The notes: generated by a model from the letters alone, not told the origin. Positions 2,921 through 39,136 are shown, counted from the stretch's first letter. The stretch is 64,000 bases of DNA from an uncultured Gammaproteobacteria bacterium (GCA_964430475.1 CAYSEQ010000001.1:92951-156950); one strand, 5' to 3'. Translations and numbers: made by a program.

Positions 2921-4133
2921 ATAACTCTTTCCTCAAAAAGTAAAAAATTAAAGGTAACGCTACCAATGAGCCAATTAAGCAAGAAACACCTGCACCAATC
3001 AATCCAAACTTAATAACCATTGGTAATATTGCTAGAAAAAGTCCAAGCGTACTTACAAAGGTCACTAATGTCACATATCCTTGTTTCTTAAGAGACAAGA
3101 AAAGCACCGATGAAGTTCCTGAAATCGCCCGTAGTATTCCAAAAAGCGAAAGGACTCTAATCACTGGAACAACATCTACCCACTTTGTCCCTAATATAAG
3201 AAATGTAAACGGCCTAGCAAATAAGATTAGAAAAAGCCCAAAAACCACTGTCGGTAGCGAAACAAAAAAAACAACTTTGAAGTATGCTTTCTTTAATCTC
3301 TCCAGATCGTCTGAAATTTTGGAATATACAGGGAATACAACCTTGCTCACTATTTCCCCACCTTCAGAAATAGGAAGAGTGGAAATTTTATAAGCGACCT
3401 GGTAAAAACCTAATGAGCCACTTCCCATGAATTTACCGACCACTATATCGTCAAGATGTTGAAATAGATACTCAAATATGCTGGCAAGGGTTACCCACTT
3501 TCCTCTGTGAATGATTATTTTTAACTTAATAGGTTCAATTTTAAATCTTGGTCGAGGTTTAATAAACATCCACGACCAGATTAATTCCAGAATAGTTCCT
3601 GCAAGCATACCAAGGACCAGACTTTCTGCACTCTTCAAAATAAAAGCACTAATCAGAGTTACCAAACCGTCAAGGATAAAAATATTTGATCTTAACCAAA
3701 ATTCTTTATTAAACCAAAGTTCTTTTTGTAAATTTACTATGCTTGGATTTATAAACCCCCTCAAAAAAGGTATACTACTTATCAATAGGATTAACTTATA
3801 AGAATTGGGTTCATTAAAAAAAGAGGAAATTATTTTTGCAAATATAACTAAAATTATTGTTATTAAAATTCCTCTCGCTATTGAAACAATCCAGGCTGAA
3901 TCCAAATATTTTTTTACATTTGCCTTCTCCTGTATCAAAAATACATTTATCCCGGTATCAGTAAGAATTTCCAAAAAGGCAAGGGCTAAAGAAGCAATAC
4001 CAAATATACCGAATTCTTTTGGACCTAGAATTCTAGCGAGTATCGCGATCTTTAAAAATGCAATTAGACGGGTTATGGATCTTAAACTCCCCATCCACAA
4101 GATGCCTTTTATTGTACTTTTGGTGTAGCCCAC
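2901..4133 (-). CDS. Wzx-like oligosaccharide flippase (polysaccharide biosynthesis protein, MOP superfamily)
   Basis: A 410-aa polytopic membrane protein. The N-terminus LRSITRLIAFLKIAILARILGPKEFGIFGIASLA matches the Wzx/PST-family signature. Confidence 0.65.
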   Translation of the reverse strand: MGYTKSTIKGILWMGSLRSITRLIAFLKIAILARILGPKEFGIFGIASLALAFLEILTDTGINVFLIQEKANVKKYLDSAWIVSIARGILITIILVIFAKIISSFFNEPNSYKLILLISSIPFLRGFINPSIVNLQKELWFNKEFWLRSNIFILDGLVTLISAFILKSAESLVLGMLAGTILELIWSWMFIKPRPRFKIEPIKLKIIIHRGKWVTLASIFEYLFQHLDDIVVGKFMGSGSLGFYQVAYKISTLPISEGGEIVSKVVFPVYSKISDDLERLKKAYFKVVFFVSLPTVVFGLFLILFARPFTFLILGTKWVDVVPVIRVLSLFGILRAISGTSSVLFLSLKKQGYVTLVTFVSTLGLFLAILPMVIKFGLIGAGVSCLIGSLVALPLIFYFLRKELYEKSGS

Positions 4134-4170
4134 GAAGTAATTTTATAATCTCTGTTCTGAAAATTAAATG

Positions 4171-5157
4171 TTATAAAAATATTAATTTTCTCAAACCATA
4201 AATCTGCATCTTCATCATTAAAGAAGATAATAAACCTACCATAAATCCTGCCATGACACAAAAGTCTGCAATTATTTGAACGACTACTCCCCAAATCCCT
4301 GAAACCAAACTTGCCGTTTTTACATATACCTTTCGGAAAGCGTAATAGAAATAAGAAGCTAAAAGCCCAATAATTAGTGCTAAATTACCCTTAAATAGGA
4401 AGATTGTTATTAAAATGCCTACTAAATATCGTGAAACTACCAAAAGAGCTTTAATATTGTGCGACTTAAATCCTTTTAAGGGGTGCAACCAAATTCCAGA
4501 CTCAGCATCTCCCTTGGCGTACTTAAAAATTTTCTTTGAAAATTCCGACAACGAAGAAGGCATTTTCCAGTCAACTTGTGCATCTTTAACCCTTGCGTAC
4601 CTTAAACCGCTTACAACGCATTTGTAATTAAAAACTGTATCTTCAGCAGTATCTTTTAGCCTCTCAGGAAATCCGCCCACTTTTCTCCACGCCTCCTTCT
4701 TAAAAGCAATCGATCTTGTTGCAGGTAAATAATTTCTACCAAAACTTTTAGCGTCCGTACCTAAAAATACTGTAAAGGCTTTCTCTAGGGAATTAAAAGC
4801 AAGCATCCTATAAAATCCTGCTGAAATATCGACATTTTTCGATTTTAGGGGACCAACAATTTTTTTAAGCCAATCTTTTTTGGGAACACATCCTGCGTCG
4901 GTGATTGCTATTATCTCATTTTTAGACAAGGCAATTCCTAAGTTCCTTCCTTCTGCACGACTACACTTTTTGACGATAAGTTTTATTCTTTTACTCTTTT
5001 TTTGATAATCTTTAATAATTTCAATTGTATTATCCGTCGAACAGGCATCAACAATAACTATCTCATCAGGTTTTTTTGACTGAAGAAGTAAGGCATCAAG
5101 CAAACTAGATATAAATCTTCCTTCATTCAGCGTCGTTATGCAAACCGATACTTTCAT
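4171..5157 (-). CDS. Family 2 glycosyltransferase with C-terminal transmembrane helices (GtrB/polyprenol-phosphate glycosyltransferase-like architecture)
   Basis: The N-terminus MKVSVCITTLNEGRFISSLLDALLLQSKKPDEIVIVDACSTDNT is a GT2 DxD region. The C-terminal ~90 aa are hydrophobic. Confidence 0.65.
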   Translation of the reverse strand: MKVSVCITTLNEGRFISSLLDALLLQSKKPDEIVIVDACSTDNTIEIIKDYQKKSKRIKLIVKKCSRAEGRNLGIALSKNEIIAITDAGCVPKKDWLKKIVGPLKSKNVDISAGFYRMLAFNSLEKAFTVFLGTDAKSFGRNYLPATRSIAFKKEAWRKVGGFPERLKDTAEDTVFNYKCVVSGLRYARVKDAQVDWKMPSSLSEFSKKIFKYAKGDAESGIWLHPLKGFKSHNIKALLVVSRYLVGILITIFLFKGNLALIIGLLASYFYYAFRKVYVKTASLVSGIWGVVVQIIADFCVMAGFMVGLLSSLMMKMQIYGLRKLIFL

Positions 5158-5165
5158 TAAAAACT

Positions 5166-6185
5166 CTAATTAAGCCATAAGTTTAAATATTTTTTTTCTA
5201 ATTCATCCCAAGTCTGAGTTCTTACCCATTTAAATGCTTTATTAGTTAATTCCAGATATTTTTTGTGATAAATTTCATAAAATTTAATTATCTTAACAAT
5301 TTTTTTTGGATCTTTGAAGCAAAAAATATACTCTTTAAAAGGAGTGAGAAAGTATATATCTTTTTCTATTGGTAAGCCGTAAGAAACTAATACCAAACAA
5401 TGATGTGCAAAAGCCTCAAGAATTGTAAGGTATCCTGATGCAAAAACGTATCGAGCTTTGGAATAGAGTTTTTCAGGGTTTTTCCAACCGTGAACTTTTC
5501 CATAAATTTCGCAAGCTTCCCGTAGTTCACCATCTCCACAAAATTCAACCCTTATACCATATTTTTGGAAAAAATTATGATAACGCTTCAATATCTTCAA
5601 AAAAATTCGTAATGTTGTTTTTTTGTCTAGTCTTCCCACATAAATTATGAGTTTTTCTTTCTTTTTTGATTTAAATCTAGGAATGTTCACCCCTCCAAGA
5701 ACCACTTCATCTGCCTTAATTCCGAAATATTTCTTTATATAACTCCCCACAGCTATCGTTGCATTTGAAAGTCTAAACGCCAACCTTTTTTGAAATATAC
5801 TCCTGATCGGTATCGGAAATTCTCCTTCCCAACCGTGAAAAGTTGTATAGATTTTCTTCCTTAAAAACAGAAATCTAAAAGGTAAATACCATATAAAAAC
5901 ATCGTGTATGTGTACTATGTCACTTTTTTTGATTAATTGAATATTTTTTAAAATCCAAGCCCAAGTATATAAAAGGCCTATTAATTTTAATTTAGGTTGA
6001 TTGAAGTAAATTACTGAAATTCTACCGCTGACTATATCTTTATCTTTAAGATGGGTGTCAAATTTAGTGGTCAGTACAGTAATCTCATGGCCTTTTTTAA
6101 TCAATCTTTTTGAAATTTCTAAAACATGTTTTTCAACTCCTCCCACATGAGGATAAAAAAGCCGAGTCATAAATAAAATTCTCAT
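5166..6185 (-). CDS. Family 4 glycosyltransferase
   Basis: MRILFMTRLFYPHVGGVEKHVLEISKRLIKKGHEITVLT is a GT4 N-terminal Rossmann motif. Confidence 0.6.
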   Translation of the reverse strand: MRILFMTRLFYPHVGGVEKHVLEISKRLIKKGHEITVLTTKFDTHLKDKDIVSGRISVIYFNQPKLKLIGLLYTWAWILKNIQLIKKSDIVHIHDVFIWYLPFRFLFLRKKIYTTFHGWEGEFPIPIRSIFQKRLAFRLSNATIAVGSYIKKYFGIKADEVVLGGVNIPRFKSKKKEKLIIYVGRLDKKTTLRIFLKILKRYHNFFQKYGIRVEFCGDGELREACEIYGKVHGWKNPEKLYSKARYVFASGYLTILEAFAHHCLVLVSYGLPIEKDIYFLTPFKEYIFCFKDPKKIVKIIKFYEIYHKKYLELTNKAFKWVRTQTWDELEKKYLNLWLN

Positions 6186-13847: not shown

Positions 13848-14903
13848 TCACAAGCCCTTTCTGGAGTTAATAACTAAAGCTAGGGATATCACAGAACCTA
13901 AAAGAGCTGAACCGCCAGCCGAAACAAATGGTAATGGAATGCCAGTAATTGGGAATAAACCAACATTCATACCAATGTGAATAAGCGTTTGAGCAAAGAA
14001 TGAAAGCAGAACACCGGATACAAATGCACGTGCAATCAAATTTTTTGCTTTTTTCAAAATATCAGTCATCATGTATAAAATTATGAAAAGATCAGATAAA
14101 ACTAAGAAAGATCCCAAAAAACCAAGTTCTTCAGAAATGGAAGCAAAGATGAAGTCTGTATGTCTTTCTGGTAAAAAAAGTAATTGCGTTTGGACACCCT
14201 TTCCTAAACCCCTCCCAAAGATTCTTCCTGAACCAACAGCTATCATCGATTGAATACTATTATAACCTGCGCCTAAGGGATCTGAAAAAGGTTTTAAAAA
14301 AACAAGAATTCTTTCTTTCTGATAAGGTAAAAGTAAAAACCATATGAAAGGTAATAAAATTAAAAAGGCTAACAATCCTCCTAAAAAATGTATTTTTTTA
14401 ATATTTGAAGCCAAAAGTGTACCCAAAAATCCTGCTGCTAAAAGGAAAGCCACTCCAAGCGAGGGTTGTATTAATATAAGAAAGAAAGGTACGGCAAAAA
14501 AAAATAATAGTCTGACAAAATTTTTAAAATTGATTTCATTTTCTGTTGACATTTTCGCAAAGTGAATAATTAGAAAAGCCCTAACAATTTCGGATGGTTG
14601 GAGTGTTATAGGACCAATAGGAATCCAACGAATGGCTCCTCGGGTAATCTCACCTAGTAAAAGTGGAAGTACTAAAAGAAAAAGACTTAAAAAATAAAGA
14701 TGCTTAGAAAAAATGCTAAAAATTTCAAAATCTATTAAGAGAAAAATTAAAAAAATAACAATAGACAAAAAGATATAAAGATAATAGTTAGGAAATAAAA
14801 ATGGGGCAATTGAACGAAGTACAAAAATGCTAATGATGAAAAGCATTACTACGGAAAAAATAAGCAGATAATCTTGCTGGGTAAGTTTAAATATTTTCAA
14901 CAT
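13848..14903 (-). CDS. SEDS-family peptidoglycan glycosyltransferase (RodA/FtsW paralogue)
   Basis: GSGRIFGRGLGKGVQTQ..FLPE.HTDFIFA and PITGIPLPFVSAGGSA are SEDS signatures. Confidence 0.8.
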   Translation of the reverse strand: MLKIFKLTQQDYLLIFSVVMLFIISIFVLRSIAPFLFPNYYLYIFLSIVIFLIFLLIDFEIFSIFSKHLYFLSLFLLVLPLLLGEITRGAIRWIPIGPITLQPSEIVRAFLIIHFAKMSTENEINFKNFVRLLFFFAVPFFLILIQPSLGVAFLLAAGFLGTLLASNIKKIHFLGGLLAFLILLPFIWFLLLPYQKERILVFLKPFSDPLGAGYNSIQSMIAVGSGRIFGRGLGKGVQTQLLFLPERHTDFIFASISEELGFLGSFLVLSDLFIILYMMTDILKKAKNLIARAFVSGVLLSFFAQTLIHIGMNVGLFPITGIPLPFVSAGGSALLGSVISLALVINSRKGL

Positions 14904-14906
14904 CTT

Positions 14907-17900
14907 TCAAATCTTTTCTACTTTAAAATTCCCGATCAATAATTTTTGAGTTAAAGTTTTCCGCTTTATTTTTTGGATAAGTTCTTTACTCGTTGGTAAC
15001 CAAGGAGTATGTACTATAATGTTCTGATCAATTTTTATATTCATGTTTTTCCTTGCTAATTGAATTTTTCGTATTAAATCTCTAGATTTTGCTTCTTCCT
15101 CCAATTCCTCAGATATATCTAATAAAAGCGACACCCTTAAAAATCTTGAAGTATGTGATTTATCAGACTTAACTGAAAACCAATTTCCTTTTATTTTTAA
15201 GTTTTTGTAGTCCTTCGTAAAAAAAACTTCTTTCACATTTAGTTCAGTCTTTAATAAAGTATTATATTCCGACGGTTTATACATCTTCGCGGAGTCGTTA
15301 AACCAGTAGCACATAGCTTTCAGGGGTTGACGAACAGGAATGTTTTCCTTCTTACGAATACTATGCCCAAGCTCAACTAATTCTCTAACAATAGCCATCT
15401 GTTCAATCAACTTATATTCTTTTAGAGTTGGTTTTTGAGTCTTGGGCCAATTAGATAAATGAACAGACTTTTCTTTTGTAAGGTTTCTGTAAATTACTTC
15501 AGAAATAAATGGATTAAATGGGGCAAGAATTTTGCAAAGTGTAGTCAAGACAAAATAACAAGTCTCGTAAAAATTTTCAGCATCCCTTTTTGAAACCTTA
15601 TCAAAACCCGTTCTTTCACGCGATCTTCTTATGTACCAGTTAGAAAGATCTTCAACAAATTCTTCAATCTTATTACTTGCGCTAAATGCATCATATTCTT
15701 TCAATTTCTCTGTTACAATAAAGATAGTTTCTTTTAATCTTGCCCTAATCCACTTATCCAAGATATTTTGGCTTGTTTTTTTGGGTTTTAAACCTTTAGG
15801 TCTAAAACCGTCAAGATTTGCATAGGTGACAAAAAAGTTATAGACATTCCAAAGCTTGATGTGAAATCTTCTCCTTACTTCATCTGCCACTTTATATCCA
15901 AAAAGTAAATTTTCGCTAGGATTTTGCTTGACATACATCCAGCGCATCACATCCACACCAATTTTCTCAGCACCCTCATTAAATTCAATCATGTTGCCCC
16001 AACTTTTATGCATAGGCTTACCATCTTCGGCAAGTAATGTAGCAAAACCAAGCACATTCTTGAAAGGTTCGCGGTTTTCTAAAACCGCACTCATGGCTAT
16101 TAACGAATAAAACCAATTCTTAAACTGTCCCGGAAAACTTTCTGTTATAAAATCAGCAGGAAACCATTTTAGCCACTCTTTCCTATTTATTAGATAAAGC
16201 GGTTCACTTTTATTGTCTGAAGAAATTGTAGAAAAAGGAACTATTCCTGCGTCTAGCCAAGGATTACCTACATCAGGAATTCGTTCGCTTAATTCTCCAC
16301 ATCTTGAACACCTTATTTTAATCTCATCAATGAAAGGTTTGTGAGGACTGTGACCTTTGAAACTTTCCCAACCTTCGACTGCCCTTGTTTTTAACTCCTC
16401 TTTTCCTCCAATAACTTCAAAGTTGTTACATTTCTTACATTCCCAAATTGGAAGCGCCAAACCCCAATAACGATTTTTCTTTGATATTAACCAATCATGC
16501 ATATTTGTAAGCCAGTCTAACTCTCTTTTAAGACCAAATGAAGGTATCCAGTTAATCTTTCTAGCAACCCTTTTCATTGCTTCCCTTAAAGGATTAACGG
16601 CAATATACCACTCATCTGTGAGTTTAAACACAAGTTCCTTTTTACACCTCCAACAAACAGGATATCTATGCTTATATTTATCAACCTTATAAAGGTATTT
16701 TCCATTCTGATATTCTCTTAGATAATCAATGATCAAATGCGGTTCCTCTTTTGCATTCTTACCTGTTAAAAAGCCAAAATCAGGTAAGTAACTTGCATCA
16801 TCTTCTATTGCAGGGATTATCGGAAGATTAAGTTTTTCACCAAGTTTATGATCTTCTGCTCCGGTTCCAGTAGAGGTGTGGACAAGTCCGGTTCCCTCTT
16901 CTTCGCTTATCGGCATAATCCTTGGATCCGTCGCAATTACTTCATGAAATCCTTTTTCATTCTTGACCTTTAGAACCGCAGATAAGTTATCAAACGGGGT
17001 TTCGTACTTTAATCCCAAAAGACTCTCACCTTTTACTTCCTTTAAAACTTTTACATCTTTCGCAAAGACGCTTTTAACTAGTTTCTTGCCTATCCAAAAC
17101 TTATCCTTCCCATCGTATACAAGTTGGTAATCAGATTGAGGATTAACTGCGACCGCTATATTTGCAGGGACTGTCCAGGGGGTGGTTGTCCATATAAGTA
17201 AGAATTCATTTTCCCCACCCACAACAGGAAATTTCAGGTACAAAGATTCATGAGTCACTTCCCTGTAATCTTCAGTTAATATTTCATGTTCGGAAATAGC
17301 TGTTTGACAACGGGGGCACCAAGGTACAACATCACTCCCTTTATAGATTAAGCCTCTTTTGTGACATTCTTTAAGAAAATGCCAAATCATGTAATTATTT
17401 ACATCAGATAGAGTAAAGTAAGAATTCTCCCAATCCATAAAGTATCCTAGCCTTTTAGACTGATCAGTTTGGATTCTTGCATACTTAAACACTCTTTTCT
17501 TACACAACTCTACGAACTTAGCAATACTTGCTGTCCTATCACCAGGTACAAGGTTTTCAATATCCCGCTTACTTTTTAGTCCTAATTCTTTTTCAACTTC
17601 TACCTCAACCCAAAGTCCCTGACAATCAAAACCATTTTGAAATCTTTGCTTATAACCCAACATGTTATAAAACCTTTGCCAAAGATCTTTGTAAGTTCTT
17701 CCCCAAGCATGATGAACACCCATAGGATTGTTCGCAGTTATTGGTCCGTCCAAAAAGGAGAATATTTTTTTTGATTTTGCGTTTTTTCGAAGGTATTCTT
17801 TAACAACACCGCTTTTGTACCAATAATCCAATAATTTCCTCTCTAAATCTGGGAAACTAACTTTCGGGAAAACAGGAGTGAAGAAAGGCTTTATTTTGCT

Positions 17901-17954
17901 TTTTCTATCCATCATGAAGCTAATTTTACAATAGAATTGTTTAAATTTTAACAC
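14907..17954 (-). CDS. ileS: Isoleucyl-tRNA synthetase
   Basis: HHAWG (a HIGH variant), WTTTPWTVPAN (IleRS editing/CP1 signature), KMHKS (a KMSKS variant) and C-terminal CxxC zinc motifs. 1015 aa. Confidence 0.85.
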   Translation of the reverse strand: MLKFKQFYCKISFMMDRKSKIKPFFTPVFPKVSFPDLERKLLDYWYKSGVVKEYLRKNAKSKKIFSFLDGPITANNPMGVHHAWGRTYKDLWQRFYNMLGYKQRFQNGFDCQGLWVEVEVEKELGLKSKRDIENLVPGDRTASIAKFVELCKKRVFKYARIQTDQSKRLGYFMDWENSYFTLSDVNNYMIWHFLKECHKRGLIYKGSDVVPWCPRCQTAISEHEILTEDYREVTHESLYLKFPVVGGENEFLLIWTTTPWTVPANIAVAVNPQSDYQLVYDGKDKFWIGKKLVKSVFAKDVKVLKEVKGESLLGLKYETPFDNLSAVLKVKNEKGFHEVIATDPRIMPISEEEGTGLVHTSTGTGAEDHKLGEKLNLPIIPAIEDDASYLPDFGFLTGKNAKEEPHLIIDYLREYQNGKYLYKVDKYKHRYPVCWRCKKELVFKLTDEWYIAVNPLREAMKRVARKINWIPSFGLKRELDWLTNMHDWLISKKNRYWGLALPIWECKKCNNFEVIGGKEELKTRAVEGWESFKGHSPHKPFIDEIKIRCSRCGELSERIPDVGNPWLDAGIVPFSTISSDNKSEPLYLINRKEWLKWFPADFITESFPGQFKNWFYSLIAMSAVLENREPFKNVLGFATLLAEDGKPMHKSWGNMIEFNEGAEKIGVDVMRWMYVKQNPSENLLFGYKVADEVRRRFHIKLWNVYNFFVTYANLDGFRPKGLKPKKTSQNILDKWIRARLKETIFIVTEKLKEYDAFSASNKIEEFVEDLSNWYIRRSRERTGFDKVSKRDAENFYETCYFVLTTLCKILAPFNPFISEVIYRNLTKEKSVHLSNWPKTQKPTLKEYKLIEQMAIVRELVELGHSIRKKENIPVRQPLKAMCYWFNDSAKMYKPSEYNTLLKTELNVKEVFFTKDYKNLKIKGNWFSVKSDKSHTSRFLRVSLLLDISEELEEEAKSRDLIRKIQLARKNMNIKIDQNIIVHTPWLPTSKELIQKIKRKTLTQKLLIGNFKVEKI

Positions 17955-23581: not shown

Positions 23582-24637
23582 TTAGATTACACTAAGCCAC
23601 AAACCAAATATGGCAAGCATTAAACCAGCAAGCCAGGCTCGTGTAACAATTTTAGGTTCCTCCCACCCTTTAGCAAGAAACGCATGATGAATAGGGGCTA
23701 GTGGAAAAATAGGGCGCTTAAGAATCCTCCATCCAAAAATTTGAATTGCTGAACTCACAAGTTCTATAACAAATAATCCGGCTATTACAAAAAGTGCAAT
23801 CACGCTCCCAGTCAACAGACCAATCACAGCAAGCATTGCACCAAATGAAAGCGCACCCGCATCACCTAAAAAAATCCTTGCAGGCCATACATTAAAGTAA
23901 AGAAATGAAATCAAGGATCCTAACCAAAGAGTTATAAAAAGGGAAAGTGGGGTATCTAAATTTGACCAGGCAATTGCAGCAAAAGCAAATAAACAAATAA
24001 CTAATAATCCTGTAGCCAGTCCGTCCAGACCATCGGTAATATTAAACGCATTGCTAAAAAGGACAATAATGAACGAAGATATTGGAATATACCAAAAACC
24101 AAAATCTATAGTTTTATTAAAAAATGGGATATGAATTATATCAATACCCAACTTTTTATAAAGAGTTACACCTATAACAATTGCAATAATCCATTCGAGT
24201 ATAAACTTTTGTCTTCTCCCCAAACCAAACCATTGACCTAAATTACCTTTGGTTGGTTTACCAAAAATTTTTAAAAGGTCATCAGAAAGACCTAAAAGTC
24301 CGAAAGATAAGAATGTAAAAAAAATTACGAAAAGTTCTGATTTAAAATCATATGAACTTCTTATGTAAACGCCCATTCTTGCAGCAAACGGAAAAAGAAA
24401 TGCAAAAGATAGTGACACAAAGCAAATTATCAAAATTCCACCTCCAACTGGCGTTCCCGCCTTAACATCGTGTAACTTGTCAAAAAGGGGTACCTTTCCT
24501 TTCTTGGGCGCTTCTTTTTTTCTAACTAATCTTAGTTTGTAAAGAATATCAATAAATGGGATGATTAAGAGGCTACTTATTATAAAAGAAAATATTATTA
24601 AACCCAAAGCTAAGGGCAGTATATTTGGCGAACTCAT
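23582..24637 (-). CDS. mraY: Phospho-N-acetylmuramoyl-pentapeptide transferase MraY
   Basis: NAFNITDGLDGLATG is the MraY/GPT family signature. Confidence 0.9.
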   Translation of the reverse strand: MSSPNILPLALGLIIFSFIISSLLIIPFIDILYKLRLVRKKEAPKKGKVPLFDKLHDVKAGTPVGGGILIICFVSLSFAFLFPFAARMGVYIRSSYDFKSELFVIFFTFLSFGLLGLSDDLLKIFGKPTKGNLGQWFGLGRRQKFILEWIIAIVIGVTLYKKLGIDIIHIPFFNKTIDFGFWYIPISSFIIVLFSNAFNITDGLDGLATGLLVICLFAFAAIAWSNLDTPLSLFITLWLGSLISFLYFNVWPARIFLGDAGALSFGAMLAVIGLLTGSVIALFVIAGLFVIELVSSAIQIFGWRILKRPIFPLAPIHHAFLAKGWEEPKIVTRAWLAGLMLAIFGLWLSVI

Positions 24638-24704
24638 AAAAATCTCTCAAACATTAAAACTTATATTAGCAAAAGTATTATAACAAAATATTTATAATAA
24701 AACT

Positions 24705-25505
24705 TTAATGATTTTTCAGCAAATAATTTCCCCGCTCTAAAATAATCTTAAACCCCTTTTTCCTTAAATTACTCATATGTGTCCTGACTGCGGAGTAAGA
24801 AGCATAACCCGCCCATATAAGATTTTTGATATCATGGATATTCAAAGATTTTTCTTCTCCAAAAAGTTCCAAGATTCGCCTTTCGGTCGGAGTAAGGTGA
24901 ATATCATCTTCAGGCAAAAAAACATATCCCAAGCCTCTTCTATTAACTATAATCTTTGGATTTTCAGGATCCTCTTCAATCTTTCTCCTTATATAATGTA
25001 TCGTGACTCTAACCTTGCTATCAACATTTTCAGAATCGCCCCAAACTTTTCCTAATTCTCTTACTGCTACCATACCTCCTTTTTTTTGTACAAGTAACAT
25101 CAAAACTTGAAACTCTCTTGGGCTTAATTCTACCCTACCTTTTATTGGAAGTTCTATTGATCTATCTTGCTCGCGTATTGAAATCTCCCCAAATTTCCAA
25201 GTTACTTCTGGTTGTGAATTTCTCTCCTTAAGACAATAACCAGTACCCCTGATATTTAAAATCTTTAAGCCTTTTCTTCGTATTTTATGAATAATAAACC
25301 TAACATTTGAATAACTTCCAAATTTTTCTTCAAGATCAGCGTATGGAACAATTCCTTCTGCATTTTCAAGCATTTCTAAAAGTTGTGACTCTCTAGGAGT
25401 TAAATGAGGGGTTCCCTCACTTTCATTTAGGTTCTTACCAAAATTTTCCTTAAATTTTTCTGAAGGAAGATCTCCTTGTTGAGACTCGAATTCAGGAATT
25501 GCCAT
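24705..25505 (-). CDS. Protein made of three tandem OmpR/PhoB-type winged-helix (trans_reg_C) DNA-binding domains with no receiver domain
   Basis: Three repeats each end in the OmpR wing motif: ...LTPRESQLLEML...IRGTGYCL; ...LSPREFQVLMLL...NRRGLGYVFL; ...LTPTERRILELF...LERGNYLL. Confidence 0.6.
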   Translation of the reverse strand: MAIPEFESQQGDLPSEKFKENFGKNLNESEGTPHLTPRESQLLEMLENAEGIVPYADLEEKFGSYSNVRFIIHKIRRKGLKILNIRGTGYCLKERNSQPEVTWKFGEISIREQDRSIELPIKGRVELSPREFQVLMLLVQKKGGMVAVRELGKVWGDSENVDSKVRVTIHYIRRKIEEDPENPKIIVNRRGLGYVFLPEDDIHLTPTERRILELFGEEKSLNIHDIKNLIWAGYASYSAVRTHMSNLRKKGFKIILERGNYLLKNH

Positions 25506-25537
25506 TTGCGCCTATAATATAATATAAAATTAAATTT

Positions 25538-26560
25538 TTAAAGTCCCCGATAAATTCTTCTTGCTGTTTCAAAAATAAAAGTCGCCCAATATAAGGGACT
25601 TATGATAAGATCGTGAGCGTGAAGCCAATCTACTCTTTGACCACCAAAACCTTTTTTAAAAACACTCACCCCAAAAAATCTGTGTTTGGGATTGTCGTTG
25701 GGTGCAATCCCCCAGAAATCATAATAATGAATACCTTTACTTTTTAGATATTTAATAATTTGCCATTGTGTAAAATACGAAGCATTGGTGTTTCTTGCAC
25801 TATCAGAAGAAGCACTGTGGTGGTAGAAAGCCTTTTCGCCATAAAAAATTATTAATGCGGAAACTAACTGTTCACCATTTCTTTCGCATATAAAAAGTTT
25901 AGCCTGATCTTCCTTCCCAAACACTTCCAACTGTGCCTTAAAAAGTTCTTCCGAAAATCCCACAAATCTATGCCTTCTGATAGTTTCTTCCTGTAATCTA
26001 TAAAGAACTTTAGCATCGTCTGGATTATCCGAAATCTTAATCGTATAACCTTCAGTAAGACTTTTCTTTATCAAATATCGAGTCGTTTTTCGCATTCCTT
26101 TTAGTATCTCCTCCTCACTTTCTCCAATATCCAAAACAAGGGTATGTTCTCCATGAAGATGCATGGGTGCAGAAATAAAACCAAGCTTTCTTAGTCTATT
26201 TTTTAATTGCTCAGAATCTGCAACATCCGGTCTTATCCTAACAAACCAAACCCTATAATCCTGGGCAATCTTTTTAATCGAATTTACAACAAACTTGTAA
26301 AGATTTTCATTCTCATAATCAATTACAGGTCCACCGGGAATCAAAAAATGTGGTCCTCTCTTAGCTGGCTGATGAATAAGCAGAAATAGTCCGACTAAAC
26401 GGTTTTTTTCGTAAACACCCATTCTTTTTATTTTTAAACCAACCCGTTTGTTTACTTCGCCCCAGTTCCAAGATTGAAGAAAAGTTCCAGGTTTTCTAGG
26501 AAGTAAAAATCCCTCCCATTCTCTCTTATCAGTAATTTCCTTAATTTCGTAATTTGGCAT
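25538..26560 (-). CDS. FemAB/FemX-family aminoacyl-tRNA-dependent peptidoglycan aminoacyltransferase
   Basis: FLQSWNWGEV and YYDFWGIAP are FemABX signatures. The length (340 aa) is FemX-like, without the coiled-coil insert. Confidence 0.7.
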   Translation of the reverse strand: MPNYEIKEITDKREWEGFLLPRKPGTFLQSWNWGEVNKRVGLKIKRMGVYEKNRLVGLFLLIHQPAKRGPHFLIPGGPVIDYENENLYKFVVNSIKKIAQDYRVWFVRIRPDVADSEQLKNRLRKLGFISAPMHLHGEHTLVLDIGESEEEILKGMRKTTRYLIKKSLTEGYTIKISDNPDDAKVLYRLQEETIRRHRFVGFSEELFKAQLEVFGKEDQAKLFICERNGEQLVSALIIFYGEKAFYHHSASSDSARNTNASYFTQWQIIKYLKSKGIHYYDFWGIAPNDNPKHRFFGVSVFKKGFGGQRVDWLHAHDLIISPLYWATFIFETARRIYRGL

Positions 26561-26578
26561 TAATATATAACAATTATT

Positions 26579-27835
26579 TTACAGAGATTTAACACAAATT
26601 TTTAGTAAGCGAGTAACATACAAGGCTTTTTCTTTACTCATTGCTTGATAAGTCGGTAAATTTAAAATTTTTCCGGCTAAGCTCTCGGCACGGGGACAGA
26701 AACCAACTCTATAATTTACAACTGCTAGATCTTTTACTGGAACTATAACGTCTTTGTACCAATCTCCGAGTAAAATCCCTTTCTTTTTCATGCATTCTAT
26801 AATCCTAGGTGCATTTTGGTAAATCACAGGAAATCTCACCCAGACAGAACCCTCATCCCTGCGGGGAAGTTTAAACAAAGAAGTCTTGAGGCTCCTAAAA
26901 TATAAGTTTGCAATTTTTTTCCTCTTCTTATTAAACCTTTCAAGTTTGAAAAATTGATTGTGGGCAAGTTGAGCAAGAGCACCTGGAAATTTCGATGGAA
27001 AAATCTTAGGTCGTTTACCAAACTTCTCTTCTTTCAGGACAGCTTTTGATAGAAATCCTAATTTCTGAAGTATTAAAAGCACAATCTTTCCTAAAGTTAT
27101 ATTACCCAAGCCTAAATTCAAGAAGGGTAAAACTAATAAATTAATTAGTATAGGGTGCAAAAGTTGCTGAAAAACCCAAAGCCTAGGAGGATAATTCAAC
27201 TTATCTCTTTCTTTTTTGAGCTGTTGATAAAGATCTTTATCCTTTGTTAAAATCATTCCACCGAAGACGCTTGATATTACTTTATCCCTACCAAAGCTAA
27301 AAAAAGACACCTTACCAAAAGTACCTAGTAGTCTACCATTAAAACTTCCTCCTAAACACAAAGCGCAATCCTCCACTAGAGGGATTTTCTTTTCTTTTGA
27401 GAATTTTAATATCTCTTTCATATTGGCAGGGATACCAAATGTATGTTGAACAATTATTGTCTTCGTTTTTTCACTTACCTTTTCACGCATGTCTCGGATA
27501 TCCATATTGAAATTTTCATCCACATCTATATATAGAGGCTTTGCACCCAACCACAGTATAGCGTTCGGGACAGCAACACAAGTAAGCGCTTGCAAAGCTA
27601 CTTCATCATTCCCTTTCACGCCAAGTGCTTTTAAGATAAGATATAAAGCACTTCTACCACTATTCACTGCTAAAGCAAGATAACCTCTCCCAAATTTTCT
27701 TGCAAATATTTTTTCGAACTCTTCGGTCTTAGTTGAATCAAACCATAATTGGGGAGAAAATAAAAGCCTTAAAGCCAAAAAAATATCGTCTTTTTCAGTG
27801 TTCGGCGATAAGGCAATCGCAATAGGGTTTTCCAT
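26579..27835 (-). CDS. DegT/DnrJ/EryC1/StrS-family PLP-dependent sugar aminotransferase
   Basis: The N-terminal fold is GRGYLALAVNSGRSALYLILKALG...VEDCALCLGG...SFFSFGRDK, with a putative PLP Lys. Confidence 0.6.
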   Translation of the reverse strand: MENPIAIALSPNTEKDDIFLALRLLFSPQLWFDSTKTEEFEKIFARKFGRGYLALAVNSGRSALYLILKALGVKGNDEVALQALTCVAVPNAILWLGAKPLYIDVDENFNMDIRDMREKVSEKTKTIIVQHTFGIPANMKEILKFSKEKKIPLVEDCALCLGGSFNGRLLGTFGKVSFFSFGRDKVISSVFGGMILTKDKDLYQQLKKERDKLNYPPRLWVFQQLLHPILINLLVLPFLNLGLGNITLGKIVLLILQKLGFLSKAVLKEEKFGKRPKIFPSKFPGALAQLAHNQFFKLERFNKKRKKIANLYFRSLKTSLFKLPRRDEGSVWVRFPVIYQNAPRIIECMKKKGILLGDWYKDVIVPVKDLAVVNYRVGFCPRAESLAGKILNLPTYQAMSKEKALYVTRLLKICVKSL

Positions 27836-29430
27836 TATATCTTTTTTGAAAATTCCAACATTATTTTAGCCGGCAATCTACCCTCAAGAAGTACCACACT
27901 ATCCTTAGAATTTAATATACCTTTCACAATTTGATAAAGCTTATCTTCGTTGACATATATAAGCTTATCTTTCTTGGTCATACCTTTTTTTAAGTCATTC
28001 AAAAAATCTCTGTTCGTCAAATACACTATTTCGGCTTTACCGCTTAGCAACTTTCCAATCTTTTGATGAATAGCACCTGATCTTTGACCTAATTCTATAA
28101 TTCCACTGGTTATGACAATTCTTCTTTTATTTTTGAAACTTTTTAAATAATTTATAGCAGCCTCAAATGAGGATGGTGTAGAGTTATATGTATCATCAAT
28201 GATGATGTTGCCTCCCAACTCATAAACATTCATTGTCCCTTTTGGTAAAACCAGATTCTTAACACCTTCTTCTATCTTTTTCCAAGAAACGCCAAAAAGT
28301 TTAGCGACTAAAATTCCAGCAGTAAGATTTTCGAGAAGGTGTTCTCCAGTCAAATTAGTGGAAAAAACATGCTTTGCGCTTTTATATTTTACTTCGAAAA
28401 CAATACTTTTTCTTTTAAAAGATAAAACTCTTGCAACAATGTCCGCGTTTTCATCCCAACTTTCTTGGGTACTATGTTTAACAAAATAACTCAAAACCTT
28501 TAGTTTTGACTTGAGTTTCTTTGCTCGTAAAAAAAGCTCTCGGCAATGTTTATTGTTAAAATTAAAAATCGCAAGACCTTCTTGAGGTAAACTTTCAATT
28601 AACTCAAATTTCGCTTTTTTAATGTTTTCTAAGCTTCCAAACAAGGCAAGATGCTGTTCTTCAATCCCTGTCAATATGCCAATAGATGGATGTACAATCT
28701 CGGTAAGTTTTTTTATTTCTCCCCTCTTATAAGCCCCCATTTCAACGACAAAAAATTCAGTTCCAGACTTAACATTCAGAATCGCCTTTCTAGCTACACC
28801 AAACTCTGTATTTTCGCTTCCTTCTGTCTTTGCTACCTTGAATTTTTGAGATAAAAGATGCGCTACAAATTCCTTGGTAGTTGTCTTCCCATAGCTTCCC
28901 GTAATTCCAATAACAATCGGTTTTACACTATCTAAGACTTCACGAGCTTTCTTGATTTCCTCTCTTTTAATCTTATTAACAATGGGAGTCGTCCATAAAA
29001 TACCAAGGAAGGGTGTAACTAACAACAAAACCTCGCCTACCAAAAGATTTCTGAAAAAAAGGGTAGCCAGGATCCCTAAAACCGAAGCCAAAAAAATCTT
29101 CTGAGCTCTCTGTGTAAATACCGGCTTTTTTAGGTTCTTTGTAAAAAGTTTCCAAAATGTCAGGAAATCAAGATATAGAATTCCAATCAAAAACAAAAAC
29201 CCTACAGGATAAAGCTTTAAAAAAAACGCTGTTAGGATCTTGAAAAAGATGAATAAAATACCCAATTTCTTTACACCTTCGTAGGATTTAAAAAAAACCG
29301 AGAATCTGTCCCAACGATACTCCTTTGTTTGTAACCAATATATCCAGTTTAATATCTGTGAAAAAGCCTGGATTGCCCAAAAAACAAAAATCGTAAAAAA
29401 ATTTAATGAGAGAAAATCTGTTTCTGCCAT
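27835..29430 (-). CDS. murF: MurF-like Mur ligase (D-Ala-D-Ala adding enzyme) in which an N-terminal ~150-aa four-TM domain replaces the usual N-terminal domain
   Basis: The P-loop IGITGSYGKTTTKE, the MurF C-terminal DDTYNSTPSSFEAAINYL, and 4 hydrophobic helices in residues 1-150 with no internal Met before the ligase core. Confidence 0.65.
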   Translation of the reverse strand: MAETDFLSLNFFTIFVFWAIQAFSQILNWIYWLQTKEYRWDRFSVFFKSYEGVKKLGILFIFFKILTAFFLKLYPVGFLFLIGILYLDFLTFWKLFTKNLKKPVFTQRAQKIFLASVLGILATLFFRNLLVGEVLLLVTPFLGILWTTPIVNKIKREEIKKAREVLDSVKPIVIGITGSYGKTTTKEFVAHLLSQKFKVAKTEGSENTEFGVARKAILNVKSGTEFFVVEMGAYKRGEIKKLTEIVHPSIGILTGIEEQHLALFGSLENIKKAKFELIESLPQEGLAIFNFNNKHCRELFLRAKKLKSKLKVLSYFVKHSTQESWDENADIVARVLSFKRKSIVFEVKYKSAKHVFSTNLTGEHLLENLTAGILVAKLFGVSWKKIEEGVKNLVLPKGTMNVYELGGNIIIDDTYNSTPSSFEAAINYLKSFKNKRRIVITSGIIELGQRSGAIHQKIGKLLSGKAEIVYLTNRDFLNDLKKGMTKKDKLIYVNEDKLYQIVKGILNSKDSVVLLEGRLPAKIMLEFSKKI

Positions 29431-30122
29431 GAGTTTATTTCTAAAGCTACCTTTTTAGGGTCTTCGTAAGGAAGTCTATGGCCCTGGTTTTCAAAAACCA
29501 CAAGTTTACTTCCCAAAATGCGGGATTTTAGAAAGAATGCGTCTTTAATTGGAGTCATCTTATCTTTTTCTCCCCAAAGAATAAGTACAGGAATTTTAAT
29601 TTTACTTACAGAATCTTTCAAATCCTCATTAACAACCTTCTTAAATATCTCGCGCATAATCCCTTGAGTCTTCTCGTAATCGTGTTCCCTGGCTAATTTG
29701 TAAAGTAGCCTTCTAAAGTTCTTAGCAATTTTAGGATAAATCAAAAATACCTTCCCTAACTTCGCAACTAAAATGAAAACTAATCTTTTTAAAAAAATTG
29801 TTCTTGAAATTCCTCTTGTTTCACAAAGAATTATTCCATAAAGATCTCGTTTATGATTTAAGGCAAGTTTTAATGCAATCGCTCCGCCAAAAGAATGTCC
29901 AAAGACAAAAAACTTTACTTTTGAAAATCTTTTCTCTGCTTTTTTTAAAACATAATCAGAATATTCCTTTAACCCCCAAACCTTCTTTGGTGCGGGCCTC
30001 CCAAAACCTGGAAGCTTGATAAGAAAAACACGCCAACCAAGACCTAAAAGTTCTTTTTTGAGTGGGATCAGGCTTTCTGTCTTTGCACCCCAACCGTGAA
30101 TAAGAACTATATTTTTAAGCAT
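29403..30122 (-). CDS. Alpha/beta-hydrolase fold protein
   Basis: IVLIHGWG..., the nucleophile elbow GHSFGG and a C-terminal His. It overlaps murF by 28 nt. Confidence 0.65.
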   Translation of the reverse strand: MLKNIVLIHGWGAKTESLIPLKKELLGLGWRVFLIKLPGFGRPAPKKVWGLKEYSDYVLKKAEKRFSKVKFFVFGHSFGGAIALKLALNHKRDLYGIILCETRGISRTIFLKRLVFILVAKLGKVFLIYPKIAKNFRRLLYKLAREHDYEKTQGIMREIFKKVVNEDLKDSVSKIKIPVLILWGEKDKMTPIKDAFFLKSRILGSKLVVFENQGHRLPYEDPKKVALEINSWQKQIFSH

Positions 30123-34262: not shown

Positions 34263-35546
34263 CTATATTTCCTCAATTTTAGCACCTAATTTTTTTAAGT
34301 TTTGGGAAAAATGAGGATGTCCTCTATACAGTGCATCAGCATTTAATATTACCGTTTCTCCCTCGGAAATCATAGCTGAAATAACCATTGCCACTACTGC
34401 ACGAATAATGTAAGGAGCTTCCAGTATCGCACCCCTTAATTTATTTCCGGCAATAACGATAACTCTATGAGGATCCGCCATTATAATATTCGCTCCCAGT
34501 TTTCCCAACTCCGATGTCCAAAAAAGTCCTGCTTCGTACATCCAGTTATGAAAAAGTACTTGTCCTTCTTTTGCAGCAAGTGCAAGTGGAATAAAAAGAG
34601 GTAAAATGTCCACAGGAAGTGCAGGCCAAGGTTGAGCTTTTACAACTAAGGTTTTTCTCCCTTCCTCAGAAGAGATAACAATCTCATCCTGGTCAACATA
34701 AGCACTGCCATCCTTATACTTAATCCTAACGCCAAACTTCTCAAAAATTCTTGCAATTGGCTTAAACTCTCTTTGCAAGGCATCATGTACTACCACTTTC
34801 CCTTTGGTGGCGGAAGCCATTGCCAAAAAAGTGGCGATTTCATAATGGTCGCTCAATATCCTGTGCTCGGTTGGTTTTAACAATTTTCCTCCTTCAATTT
34901 CCAGAATATTTGAACCTACCCCATCTATCTTTGCTCCACAAGCGTTCAAAAAGTTACAGAGATCCTGCACTTGAAGTTCGCAAGCACCTCCAATAATCTT
35001 TGTTTTACCTGGAAGTCCAACAGCTAGCATGATCGCATTCTCTGTTGCCGTGGGGCTGACTTCAGTAAGCCAAATTTCTCTTGCTTTAGCCTCTCTGGCA
35101 TCCATAGAAACACTTGAAGTAGTCTCTCTTATCTTCACACCCAAATCCCTAAACGCTTGATAATGTGGATCTAATGTTCTATACCCAAGCGTGCAGCCAC
35201 CTGGCAAATCCTTAAAAACTACTTTCTTGAACCTATAAAGCATTGGTCCCCAGAGAAGGGATGTCCCTCTCATATTTCCTAAATCCTCTTTATCCAAGTT
35301 TTTAAAAGACAAATTTTTGTTATCGATTGTCAATGTCTTATTCTCTTTATCCCACAACACTTTACTCCCCATTTTTTGGAGTATATTCAGAAGTCTTGTA
35401 ACATCCGTTATATCTGGGACATTTTTGAATTTTACGGGTTGATCAAACAAAATACTGGCAGGAATCAAAGCAACTGCTGAGTTTTTACTTCCAGAAGGAT
35501 ACACTTCACCTTCAAGTCTTTGACAACCAATTACTCTTATATTCAT
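34263..35546 (-). CDS. murA: UDP-N-acetylglucosamine 1-carboxyvinyltransferase MurA
   Basis: YPSGSKNSAV and LPGGCTLGYR (catalytic Cys) in an EPSP-synthase fold. Confidence 0.85.
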   Translation of the reverse strand: MNIRVIGCQRLEGEVYPSGSKNSAVALIPASILFDQPVKFKNVPDITDVTRLLNILQKMGSKVLWDKENKTLTIDNKNLSFKNLDKEDLGNMRGTSLLWGPMLYRFKKVVFKDLPGGCTLGYRTLDPHYQAFRDLGVKIRETTSSVSMDAREAKAREIWLTEVSPTATENAIMLAVGLPGKTKIIGGACELQVQDLCNFLNACGAKIDGVGSNILEIEGGKLLKPTEHRILSDHYEIATFLAMASATKGKVVVHDALQREFKPIARIFEKFGVRIKYKDGSAYVDQDEIVISSEEGRKTLVVKAQPWPALPVDILPLFIPLALAAKEGQVLFHNWMYEAGLFWTSELGKLGANIIMADPHRVIVIAGNKLRGAILEAPYIIRAVVAMVISAMISEGETVILNADALYRGHPHFSQNLKKLGAKIEEI

Positions 35547-37613: not shown

Positions 37614-38584
37614 ATTTTTTCTAAAACCCTAAGTCTTGCACTTCGCGCTCTAGGGTTTTCCTTAATTTCCTCTTCTTTAGGTAAAATAGGCTTTTTCGTT
37701 ATCACTTTTCCTTCTTTCTTTTCTTCCAAAGTTTTGAAAAAGTGCTTAACTATCCTATCTTCACCCGAATGATAACTAATCACGACTAACCTTCCACCTC
37801 TATCAAGTAAATTAAAAGCCTTGGGCAAAGTTTTTTTTAAATTCTCAAGTTCACTATTAACCGCTATACGAAGGGCTAGGAAAGGCAGTGTAGCGGGATT
37901 TAAGTTGCGATGCTTAATCGTAGACTCTTTGATAATCTGCAAAAAATCACCAACCTTTTCAATACTTTTTAGCTTTCTTGTTTCAATAATTTTCCTCACA
38001 AGTTTTCTTGCAGATTTTAAATCCATTACCTCACCAAATAACTTAAGCAAGTTTCTCCTGTCTAAAAGTCTTAACAAATCTGAAGCCTTAACACCTTGAC
38101 CTTCGGGATCAAAACGCATGTCAAGAGGGTCGGACGGTCTATTAAAAGAAAAACCTCTGTTTTCTTTTTCAAGTTGATAAGACGATATCCCTAAATCGAA
38201 TAAAACCCCATTTACTTTTTCAAAACCAAATCGTTTTGCAATCCTATCAAGGCTCAAAAAATTACCTTTGACTAATTTGATATCGCCCCAAACCAAAGAT
38301 GTTTGGTTTGGGACAGGGCAGGCTTTTCTCTTTAAAGTTTGATCAGATAGGATTTTTTTAATTTCTTTTCTTGCTATACCAAGAGATTTTCTATCAGCTT
38401 CAATACCCAATACATGTCCGCCTCTTTCCCAGATTTTTATTGTATGCCCTCCCAAGCCAAGTGTGGCATCTATAAACTTTGCCCTAGGTTTTAAATGTGC
38501 AAGTTCATTTAGCTTTAAAGCTTCCAAAACTTCATCAACAAGTACTGGCCTATGTATTCCTTGACCTTTTCTTAAATATTCCAT
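37610..38584 (-). CDS. rsmH: 16S rRNA (cytosine1402-N4)-methyltransferase RsmH (MraW)
   Basis: FIDATLGLGGHT and FDLGISSYQLE. Confidence 0.9.
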   Translation of the reverse strand: MEYLRKGQGIHRPVLVDEVLEALKLNELAHLKPRAKFIDATLGLGGHTIKIWERGGHVLGIEADRKSLGIARKEIKKILSDQTLKRKACPVPNQTSLVWGDIKLVKGNFLSLDRIAKRFGFEKVNGVLFDLGISSYQLEKENRGFSFNRPSDPLDMRFDPEGQGVKASDLLRLLDRRNLLKLFGEVMDLKSARKLVRKIIETRKLKSIEKVGDFLQIIKESTIKHRNLNPATLPFLALRIAVNSELENLKKTLPKAFNLLDRGGRLVVISYHSGEDRIVKHFFKTLEEKKEGKVITKKPILPKEEEIKENPRARSARLRVLEKI

Positions 38585-39026
38585 GTTCTAACCACTTCTC
38601 TTCCTTCGCAATCTTCTCGATAGCCAGGGATGCCTTTTCTTCTGCGCTCTTTTCCAGATCAATCCACTTTTCTTTAGCCCATATTTCAACCCTATCCCCC
38701 AATCCAAGAAAGACTACCTCTTCCTTCAATCCAGCAAAATCTACTAAAACCTCAGGCAATACAAACCTTCCCTGACTATCTAGACTCACCTCAAAAGCTG
38801 ATCCCAAGATAAACCTATCGATATCCCTTATCGGGGAGATCACCAGATGGGTTCTACCGATAAGGCGATCTATTAGATTTTGCCAATTCTGTTTTGAAAC
38901 CAACACACAACACCCCTCGTACCACCTCGCGACTATCATCTCTGAACCCAACTCTTCCCTGAACTTTTTAGGTACTGCTACTCTATTTTTTTGTGTTAAT
39001 TTGCTAAAGTACTGCCCAATAAGCAT
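38550..39026 (-). CDS. mraZ: Transcriptional regulator MraZ
   Basis: The N-terminus LDSKGRV-like: MLIGQYFSKLTQKNRVAVPKKFREEL, with a duplicated MraZ domain, and ...DSQGRFVLP. Confidence 0.85.
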   Translation of the reverse strand: MLIGQYFSKLTQKNRVAVPKKFREELGSEMIVARWYEGCCVLVSKQNWQNLIDRLIGRTHLVISPIRDIDRFILGSAFEVSLDSQGRFVLPEVLVDFAGLKEEVVFLGLGDRVEIWAKEKWIDLEKSAEEKASLAIEKIAKEEKWLEHGIFKKRSRNT

Positions 39027-39064
39027 TGAGTGTTAAGGGCAGTTTTGAGAATATTTTATACTAT

Positions 39065-39074
39065 ATTCACCACT
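39065..39074 (-). promoter_or_regulatory. Copy 1 of an exact 10-mer ATTCACCACT (minus-strand AGTGGTGAAT). Candidate MraZ operator box, proximal.
   Basis: An exact direct repeat also found at 39127..39136. It contains a GTGGTG core resembling the MraZ-box GTGG motif. Confidence 0.35.
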
Positions 39075-39110: not shown

Positions 39111-39126
39111 GATGATATTCTTTAAA

Positions 39127-39136
39127 ATTCACCACT
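39127..39136 (-). promoter_or_regulatory. Copy 2 of the ATTCACCACT box, distal, upstream of the -35
   Basis: An exact 10/10 match to copy 1. Confidence 0.35.

Follow-up and report, generated by a model that had tools for sequence, protein, structure and literature searches.

We identified a gene whose product carries three OmpR/PhoB-like winged-helix modules in one chain and has neither a receiver nor a sensor domain. It lies in a 64,000-nucleotide stretch of DNA (the window) from an assembly named as an uncultured Gammaproteobacteria bacterium (GCA_964430475.1, CAYSEQ010000001.1:92951-156950). The gene is genuine, lineage-specific and derived from the OmpR/PhoB lineage, and it is embedded, on the same strand, in a complete and long co-directional dcw (division and cell wall) cluster. 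We refer to its product as the 3-wHTH protein (wHTH, winged helix-turn-helix). The reading that we favour, with a probability of about one half, is that it acts as a constitutive single-chain DNA-binding regulator, which would recognize a composite asymmetric operator of ~30 bp and have the distal dcw genes or the cluster as its target. This reading builds on the observed domain composition, fold, lack of a receiver, position, reproducibility of the sequence and restriction to one lineage. An earlier interpretation made from the DNA alone (the sequence-only reading) had placed an open reading frame (ORF) with three DNA-binding repeats here, between femX and mraY, and both the frame and its neighbours were found as described.

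Three modules of OmpR/PhoB descent in one chain

The protein is laid out as follows (aa, amino acids; pI, isoelectric point; pLDDT, the per-residue confidence score of AlphaFold).

24705-25505, minus strand: 3-wHTH ORF, ATG start, 266 aa plus stop, among the ORFs listed for the window
25407-25505, minus strand: N-terminal acidic tail (aa 1-33), pI 4.3, net charge -4, predicted disordered, no family match
25221-25406, minus strand: module 1 (aa 34-95), short OmpR-derived wHTH by Pfam, shuffles and hhalign, pLDDT 86-89, pI 9.3; helices 37-48, 55-62 and 65-77, wing hairpin 82-92 with RGTGYCL (aa 86-92)
25137-25220, minus strand: linker (aa 96-101) and four-stranded N-terminal beta-sheet of module 2, strands 102-105, 108-111, 116-119 and 123-126
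24912-25136, minus strand: wHTH core of module 2 (aa 124-198), canonical OmpR/PhoB effector domain; helices 129-140, 148-154 and 161-176, wing 186-196 with RGLGYVFL (aa 190-197)
24708-24911, minus strand: module 3 (aa 199-266), short OmpR-derived wHTH by Pfam, shuffles and hhalign, pLDDT 80-96, pI 9.1; helices 206-217, 223-231 and 237-249, wing 253-264 with RGNYLL (aa 258-263)

The wing motifs picked out by the sequence-only reading (GTGYCL, RGLGYVFL and RGNYLL) are all present in these wings. We scanned the modules one by one as well as together against the Pfam profile Trans_reg_C (PF00486), which has a gathering score of 26.2 bits. The whole protein scored 90.5 bits in three matched stretches. 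Scanned alone, module 2 reached 60.3 bits (E 2e-16), module 1 reached 19.9 bits (E 7.8e-4, profile positions 5-77 of 77) and module 3 reached 21.7 bits (E 2.2e-4, positions 3-56 of 77), so that module 2 is the sole module above the gathering score by itself. The sequence-only reading had named a single significant wHTH with a low-complexity remainder as grounds for rejection; formally the first half of this applies, but the remainder here is not of low complexity. Neither Response_reg (PF00072) nor any sensor family matched the protein in Pfam even at E<=10, which bears out the claim that receiver and sensor are missing.

Pairwise comparison related the modules to each other. Modules 1 and 2 (Smith-Waterman z=12.3) and modules 1 and 3 (z=12.4) reached scores that none of 2000 shuffles attained, whereas modules 2 and 3 were only weakly similar (z=2.65; 42 of 2000 shuffles reached the score); module 1 thus bridges the other two. 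In hhalign a profile of modules 1 and 3 matched 18 stand-alone OmpR-type domains (probability 95.4%, E 1.7e-8), and the 65 aligned columns run from the first helix through the wing. The alignment contains a clean seven-residue deletion, by which the two outer modules lose the E-DP-xP loop that joins helix 3 to the wing; module 1 lacks both this loop and the N-terminal sheet. The earlier claim of three Trans_reg_C-like repeats therefore holds for three homologous wHTH modules, as judged by z-scores, hhalign and fold, but only module 2 is canonical and above threshold. The sheet that belongs to PF00486 is found in module 2 and the wHTH with its wing in all three.

AlphaFold2 gave three helix-helix-helix-hairpin units already without an alignment (pLDDT 62), and three such modules at a mean pLDDT of 81.8 with a 19-row alignment. 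In the model the four-stranded sheet (aa 102-126) is confined to module 2, no structure is assigned to residues 1-31 and 95-99, and module 1 passes from its wing straight into the sheet of module 2, with short linkers throughout; about 6-9 residues separate the wing of module 2 from the start of module 3. The acidic tail had a pLDDT of 29-34 in both models. All modules are basic (pI 9.1-9.8) and keep the ends of helix 3 (V-R at the start, R-K at the end) and the wing pattern R-G-x-(G)-Y, which in module 3 reads RGN-Y. The residues between the conserved helix 3 ends vary from module to module (FIIHKI, VTIHYI and THMSNL).

Other identities were tried and set aside. Similarity of the outer modules to BlaI/MecI or HTH_11 was of the generic wHTH kind, and a score above the 22.6-bit gathering score of Penicillinase_R together with a C-terminal dimerisation and cleavage domain, as expected of BlaI/MecI proteins, was not seen. 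Sequence searches of the PDB with modules 1 and 3 alone returned spurious low-complexity matches only (HP0242, designed proteins, MarR fragments). A sub-family could not be assigned to module 2, as its best NCBIfam matches (RpaB, MtrA, KdpE, VanR and YycF, 48-58 bits against cut-offs of at least 300 bits) do not discriminate. The PHROG matches of the protein are response-regulator-like families of unknown function.

The gene is genuine and sits in the dcw cluster

An independent assembly, made by Logan from SRR11582147, matches the window at 100% identity across 20.8 kb, the 3-wHTH gene included. No in-register DNA repeats occur within the gene, which indicates that the duplications are old. 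Together these results rule out an assembly artefact or chimera, a possibility that the sequence-only reading had itself raised. With a GC content of 0.346 and a GC3 (third codon position) of 0.247, the gene resembles adjacent genes in composition, and a recent foreign origin was rejected on this ground.

The dcw order is mraZ, rsmH, a small ftsL-like ORF, a class B penicillin-binding protein (PBP) gene, murA, three Mur ligase genes plus murB, an alpha/beta hydrolase gene, murF, a DegT-type aminotransferase gene, femAB, the 3-wHTH gene, mraY, ftsW, murG, a ftsQ-like ORF, ftsA and ftsZ. The parts used below are:

38550-39026: mraZ
25538-26560, minus strand: femAB, upstream neighbour of the 3-wHTH gene
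25506-25537, minus strand: 32-bp gap from the femAB stop to the 3-wHTH ATG
24638-24704, minus strand: 67-bp gap from the 3-wHTH stop to the mraY start, holding TGTTATAAT (24677-24685)
23582-24637, minus strand: mraY, downstream neighbour of the 3-wHTH gene

The 32-bp gap contains no terminator on the coding strand, with one terminator-like site on the opposite strand, and promoter-like matches in it are no more frequent than in shuffled sequence. The short gap and the lack of a coding-strand terminator make co-transcription with the dcw genes upstream likely. No HisKA/HATPase_c or receiver domain was found among the 41 window ORFs scanned with Pfam (several further ORFs, mainly at 11.7-35.5 kb and 62.7-63.7 kb and some of them with precomputed Pfam labels, lay outside the scan).

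By its mraY the host is a Woesebacteria/Microgenomates-type member of the Patescibacteria; the mraY of the closest available relative is 74% identical. Many third-party metagenome-assembled genomes titled 'uncultured Gammaproteobacteria bacterium' or 'Pseudomonadales' (CAY.../CAZ... accessions) have mraY loci that are 50-74% identical to, and syntenic with, Woesebacteria/Microgenomates (L002, L006, L011, L012, L016, L017, L020 and many others), and the organism names on those records appear to be wrong.

Receiver-less proteins with several Trans_reg_C domains

The 3-wHTH protein is not unique in its general architecture. About one third of the best 150 HMMER matches had 2-5 matched stretches, and Pfam found 2-5 full Trans_reg_C domains and no receiver in ten of ten such proteins. 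Examples of the class are P0121 (HUQ85007.1), P0024, P0029, P0039 and P0132 with three domains, P0012 and P0013 with four, and P0060 with five. The only source name among them is 'winged helix-turn-helix domain-containing protein'. The receiver-less multi-Trans_reg_C architecture is thus already in the databases, uncharacterised, and the statement that OmpR-family regulators have one such domain is right for characterised members but not for sequence space at large. The 3-wHTH protein follows the idea of several OmpR-type modules in a chain without a receiver, but by the Pfam thresholds it counts one domain. In these proteins none of the copies is shortened (~100-110 aa each, sheet included) and the three-domain members have ~350 aa, whereas the 3-wHTH protein packs one full copy and two trimmed ones, that is, one above-threshold domain and two homologous modules below threshold, into 266 aa. 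It is a new compacted variant within this architecture class. A limited literature collection yielded no study of proteins with tandem Trans_reg_C domains, nor any of dcw regulators from Patescibacteria.

Two of these proteins are themselves encoded in dcw clusters:

L085 5001-6074, plus strand: P0121 (HUQ85007.1), 357 aa, three full Trans_reg_C domains, no receiver
L089 6001-7056, plus strand: P0024, 351 aa, three full Trans_reg_C domains, no receiver

P0121 and P0024 are colinear and 29% identical. Both genes are flanked by ftsI and a Mur ligase gene but lie on the opposite strand, each preceded by a small tRNA_bind gene with TGTTAAAAT just upstream of it. Because the arrangement is kept across 29% identity, the association with dcw is stable in this lineage. 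The two contigs, at 36-38% GC, encode dcw proteins with 40-46% identity to those of the window (for comparison, recognised Microgenomates PBPs are 49-62% identical to the window's), and they share the RecO-aminoacyl-tRNA synthetase-x-MraZ synteny with it. On these grounds the hosts are probably related Patescibacteria despite the label 'Candidatus Limnocylindrales' (Chloroflexota) that one of the contigs bears at NCBI (L085; GCA_035526025.1, DATLDE010000005.1; 36% GC), a label that looks doubtful.

BLASTP aligned the 3-wHTH protein with P0024 colinearly over the three modules (30% identity, E 3e-15). The module score matrix was nevertheless off-diagonal for modules 1 and 3 of the window protein, and in hhalign the profile of modules 1 and 3 matched the third modules of P0121/P0024 at 56.8% and the first and second modules at 84%. 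Orthology was rejected, as there is no specific module affinity and both cluster position and strand differ. A profile search found no further members of the P0121/P0024 family. We take P0121/P0024 as a second and probably independent instance in which a protein with three OmpR-type domains was recruited to a dcw cluster; as one additional family among six examined, this coincidence is suggestive and not statistically secure.

Some other proteins of this class are fused to STAND-type ATPases or encoded next to them: P0014 (the P0014/P0162 entry) has three Trans_reg_C domains followed by AAA_16, and P0051 (L090) is encoded beside a Pkinase-AAA-TPR protein and other AAA_16 genes on a contig of 75% GC. 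Both resemble SARP/AfsR-type regulators with duplicated DNA-binding heads.

A proposed constitutive regulator and its candidate target

An OmpR/PhoB-type effector domain would have undergone ancient internal duplication, after which the two outer copies would have been trimmed. The three basic modules on short linkers (about 6-9 residues) could then place several recognition helices on neighbouring DNA, and covalent linkage would stand in for the receiver and for phosphorylation-driven dimerisation. Binding would be constitutive, and the operator composite, asymmetric and roughly 30 bp long (about three helical turns). Successive PhoB protomers in the tandem complex with DNA touch wing to sheet on direct repeats; the wing of module 1 followed by the sheet of module 2 may mimic this head-to-tail contact. 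What the proposal predicts, beyond the observations, is that each of the three modules contacts DNA, that they are arranged head to tail, and which genes they act on.

WalR and MtrA are examples of OmpR-family regulators that govern genes for the wall and for division. The 3-wHTH gene would be co-transcribed with the proximal dcw genes, and its most likely target would be mraY-ftsW-murG-ftsQ-ftsA-ftsZ or the cluster's own expression; its place in the proximal transcript, with its end beside a promoter-like element before mraY, points to these targets. That element, TGTTATAAT, is extended -10-like and lies 48 nt before the mraY ATG, and the 3-wHTH gene stops 20 nt upstream of it. In the 64-kb window TGNTATAAT has two matches, this one included, against 3.3 expected, which is not above chance. 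When the 120 nt before mraY were scanned, 11 of 78 relatives (L006, L008, L025, L027, L035, L039-L041, L044, L047 and L054) had a similar extended -10-like element (TGNTANAAT); in these and in the window it stands 17-70 nt from mraY. Microgenomates may thus have an internal promoter that serves the distal half of the cluster, and the 67-bp gap is a candidate both for such a promoter and for the site bound by the 3-wHTH protein.

A direct repeat of 10-13 nt, found in the course of the analysis, lies in the 187-bp region upstream of mraZ. Its copies at 39062-39074 and 39124-39136, 62 bp apart, read ATTCACCACT on the plus strand and AGTGGTGAAT on the coding strand and flank promoter-like AT-rich sequence. 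MraZ binds direct repeats in its own promoter, and these copies are candidate MraZ boxes.

Evidence against the proposal and alternative explanations

Several results weigh against a regulator that reads DNA with all three modules and controls the dcw genes. The first concern the protein itself: modules 1 and 3 fall under the Pfam threshold and have lost the beta-sheet, and module 3 has the least basic helix 3. In a first alternative only the central domain binds DNA and the trimmed outer modules serve protein contacts, either self-association that replaces receiver dimerisation or binding of a partner or of RNA polymerase. Winged-helix domains are used for protein contacts in ScpB, ESCRT-II and cullins. 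Yet the recognition helix of module 1 (NVRFIIHKIRRKG) is nearly as OmpR-like as that of module 2 (KVRVTIHYIRRKI), and all modules keep the wing Arg-Gly and a basic pI, which is not expected of decayed non-binding copies. We regard this alternative as improbable, though it is the rival that fares best.

The remaining points concern distribution and target. A word-indexed search of 5.8 billion proteins returned no ortholog, the matches being the protein itself and ordinary response regulators, and a full HMMER search over 1.84 billion representative proteins found none either. The next-best HMMER match (P0009, 89 bits, 33% identity) is a two-domain protein in an unrelated neighbourhood, and a profile of modules 1 and 3 found nothing. 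Since there is no ortholog, there is neither evidence of purifying selection nor a phylogenetic footprint. We sampled 80 Microgenomates/Woesebacteria mraY loci, mostly with 6 kb on either side, and phmmer and tblastn detected no match to and no remnant of the 3-wHTH gene in them. The hydrolase-murF-degT-femAB arrangement, or at least its femAB end, is shared by 14 relatives, and in these mraY directly adjoins femAB. The dcw clusters therefore work without the gene, which, given this tight junction, is a lineage-specific insertion there.

The operator search was likewise negative. Triple direct 7-mers with periods of 9-12 or 20-23 were absent from every intergenic gap of the window (0.09 expected), so that the three-repeat operator put forward in the sequence-only reading stays hypothetical, and a repeat search of six intergenic gaps gave short two-copy families only, with no obvious operator. 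As the inner residues of helix 3 differ between the modules, an asymmetric operator would be expected in place of three identical repeats, in keeping with the lack of triple repeats. Finally, when the contexts of seven multi-domain proteins were inspected, five lay away from dcw genes.

These observations bear on a second alternative, namely that the dcw position is incidental. The gene would then have inserted at a permissive intergenic site of a long operon, and its product would regulate genes elsewhere or be a general or architectural DNA binder. This would account for its absence from the 80 related loci although the femAB-mraY junction is otherwise tight, for the failure to find an operator-like repeat near the cluster, and for the location of most other multi-Trans_reg_C proteins examined. 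The larger gaps upstream of mraY in other relatives, moreover, hold other unrelated genes, with no winged-helix gene among them (ddl, murA, a DgkA-like gene, a small membrane protein). A non-orthologous triple family is, however, stably dcw-embedded in two genomes at 29% identity, the composition of the 3-wHTH gene is fully ameliorated, and the gene adjoins a promoter-like element for mraY. An incidental position is in our view unlikely, somewhat more so than protein-binding outer modules. The suggestion of the sequence-only reading that the protein controls wall or division genes thus gains from the P0121/P0024 family in the dcw clusters of two diverged related genomes and loses from the absence of the gene in all 80 mraY loci and the 14 direct femAB-mraY junctions.

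That the gene is an artefact or dead, either a chimera or the decaying functionless remnant of a response regulator, would fit its being a singleton in public protein collections, but is extremely improbable given the identical independent assembly, the unbroken 266-codon frame with three confidently folded modules (pLDDT 81.8), the lack of in-register repeats, the native codon composition and the absence of any receiver remnant detectable by Pfam.

The proposal of a constitutive three-module regulator can also be carried further. Receiver-less OmpR-type arrays might form an unrecognised class of phosphorylation-independent single-chain transcription factors. Genome-reduced Patescibacteria would have taken them into their dcw clusters on two or more independent occasions, in place of the wall and division control that WalR/MtrA-type two-component systems provide in other bacteria; the 3-wHTH protein would then be a compacted three-headed reader of a tripartite asymmetric operator at the mraY-proximal promoter. 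We consider this extension speculative and decidedly doubtful.

Other features of the window

Four non-classical genes lie between murD and mraY (25538-30122), encoding an alpha/beta hydrolase (29403-30122), an unusually long MurF (531 aa) with an N-terminal membrane-like extension, a DegT/EryC1 aminotransferase and the FemAB-family transferase. The block recurs in some relatives (for example L002, L013, L015, L020, L022, L028, L042 and L052) and suggests a modified peptidoglycan stem or cross-bridge. The MurA of the window (34263-35546) is 64% identical to that of L045 and 24-38% identical to MurA-like genes adjoining mraY in other relatives; there seem to be two deeply diverged lineages of the MurA/EPSP-synthase fold in these dcw clusters.

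An isoleucyl-tRNA synthetase gene (14907-17954) lies between ftsZ and a second SEDS gene, rodA-like (13848-14903), so the co-directional block runs past the usual dcw end (13848-17954). Both flanks of the dcw cluster (1-6185 and 43232-63715) hold large envelope-glycan gene sets, all on the same strand, with GT2/GT4 glycosyltransferases, a Wzx-like flippase, a Wzy_C ligase/polymerase, PMT_2 mannosyltransferase-like proteins, a Bac_transf priming transferase and DUF4012.

Comparison with known systems and significance

The OmpR/PhoB response regulators (PF00486; WalR/VicR/YycF, KdpE, PhoB, MtrA) have one DNA-binding domain, whereas the 3-wHTH protein has three. Unlike them it lacks a receiver and phospho-acceptor, with no kinase among the scanned ORFs, and its outer modules lack the sheet and seven residues of the helix-3-to-wing loop of the OmpR/PhoB effector domain. 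ToxR/TcpP, CadC, HilA, SARP/AfsR and EmbR join a single OmpR-type domain to a transmembrane or periplasmic sensor or to BTAD, NB-ARC or TPR modules; by Pfam and the structural model the 3-wHTH protein has none of these, and only the 33-residue acidic tail besides its wHTHs. MraZ, the canonical dcw transcription factor, is likewise encoded inside the cluster, with an unrelated fold, and is thought to bind direct repeats in the dcw cluster promoter. As mraZ is present separately in the window, the 3-wHTH protein is an addition and not a replacement. The iteron-binding plasmid initiators (RepE/pi/RepA, WH1-WH2) also have covalently linked winged helices, each of which touches part of a longer site with no need for dimerisation. 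These initiators have two modules in place of three, serve replication initiation and show no detected sequence relationship, so the likeness is one of analogy only.

To our knowledge, bacteria of the Candidate Phyla Radiation have very few recognisable regulators, and we know of nothing on how they control wall synthesis and division. The 3-wHTH gene is at present a single orphan gene with an inferred function. Should the outer modules not bind DNA, it would still be a clear case of duplicated DNA-binding domains that were trimmed and re-used. If the proposal is true, a multi-module constitutive regulator would show the commonest bacterial output domain working without a two-component system, and the two unrelated triple-module genes in dcw clusters offer a testable handle on dcw regulation in uncultivated bacteria.
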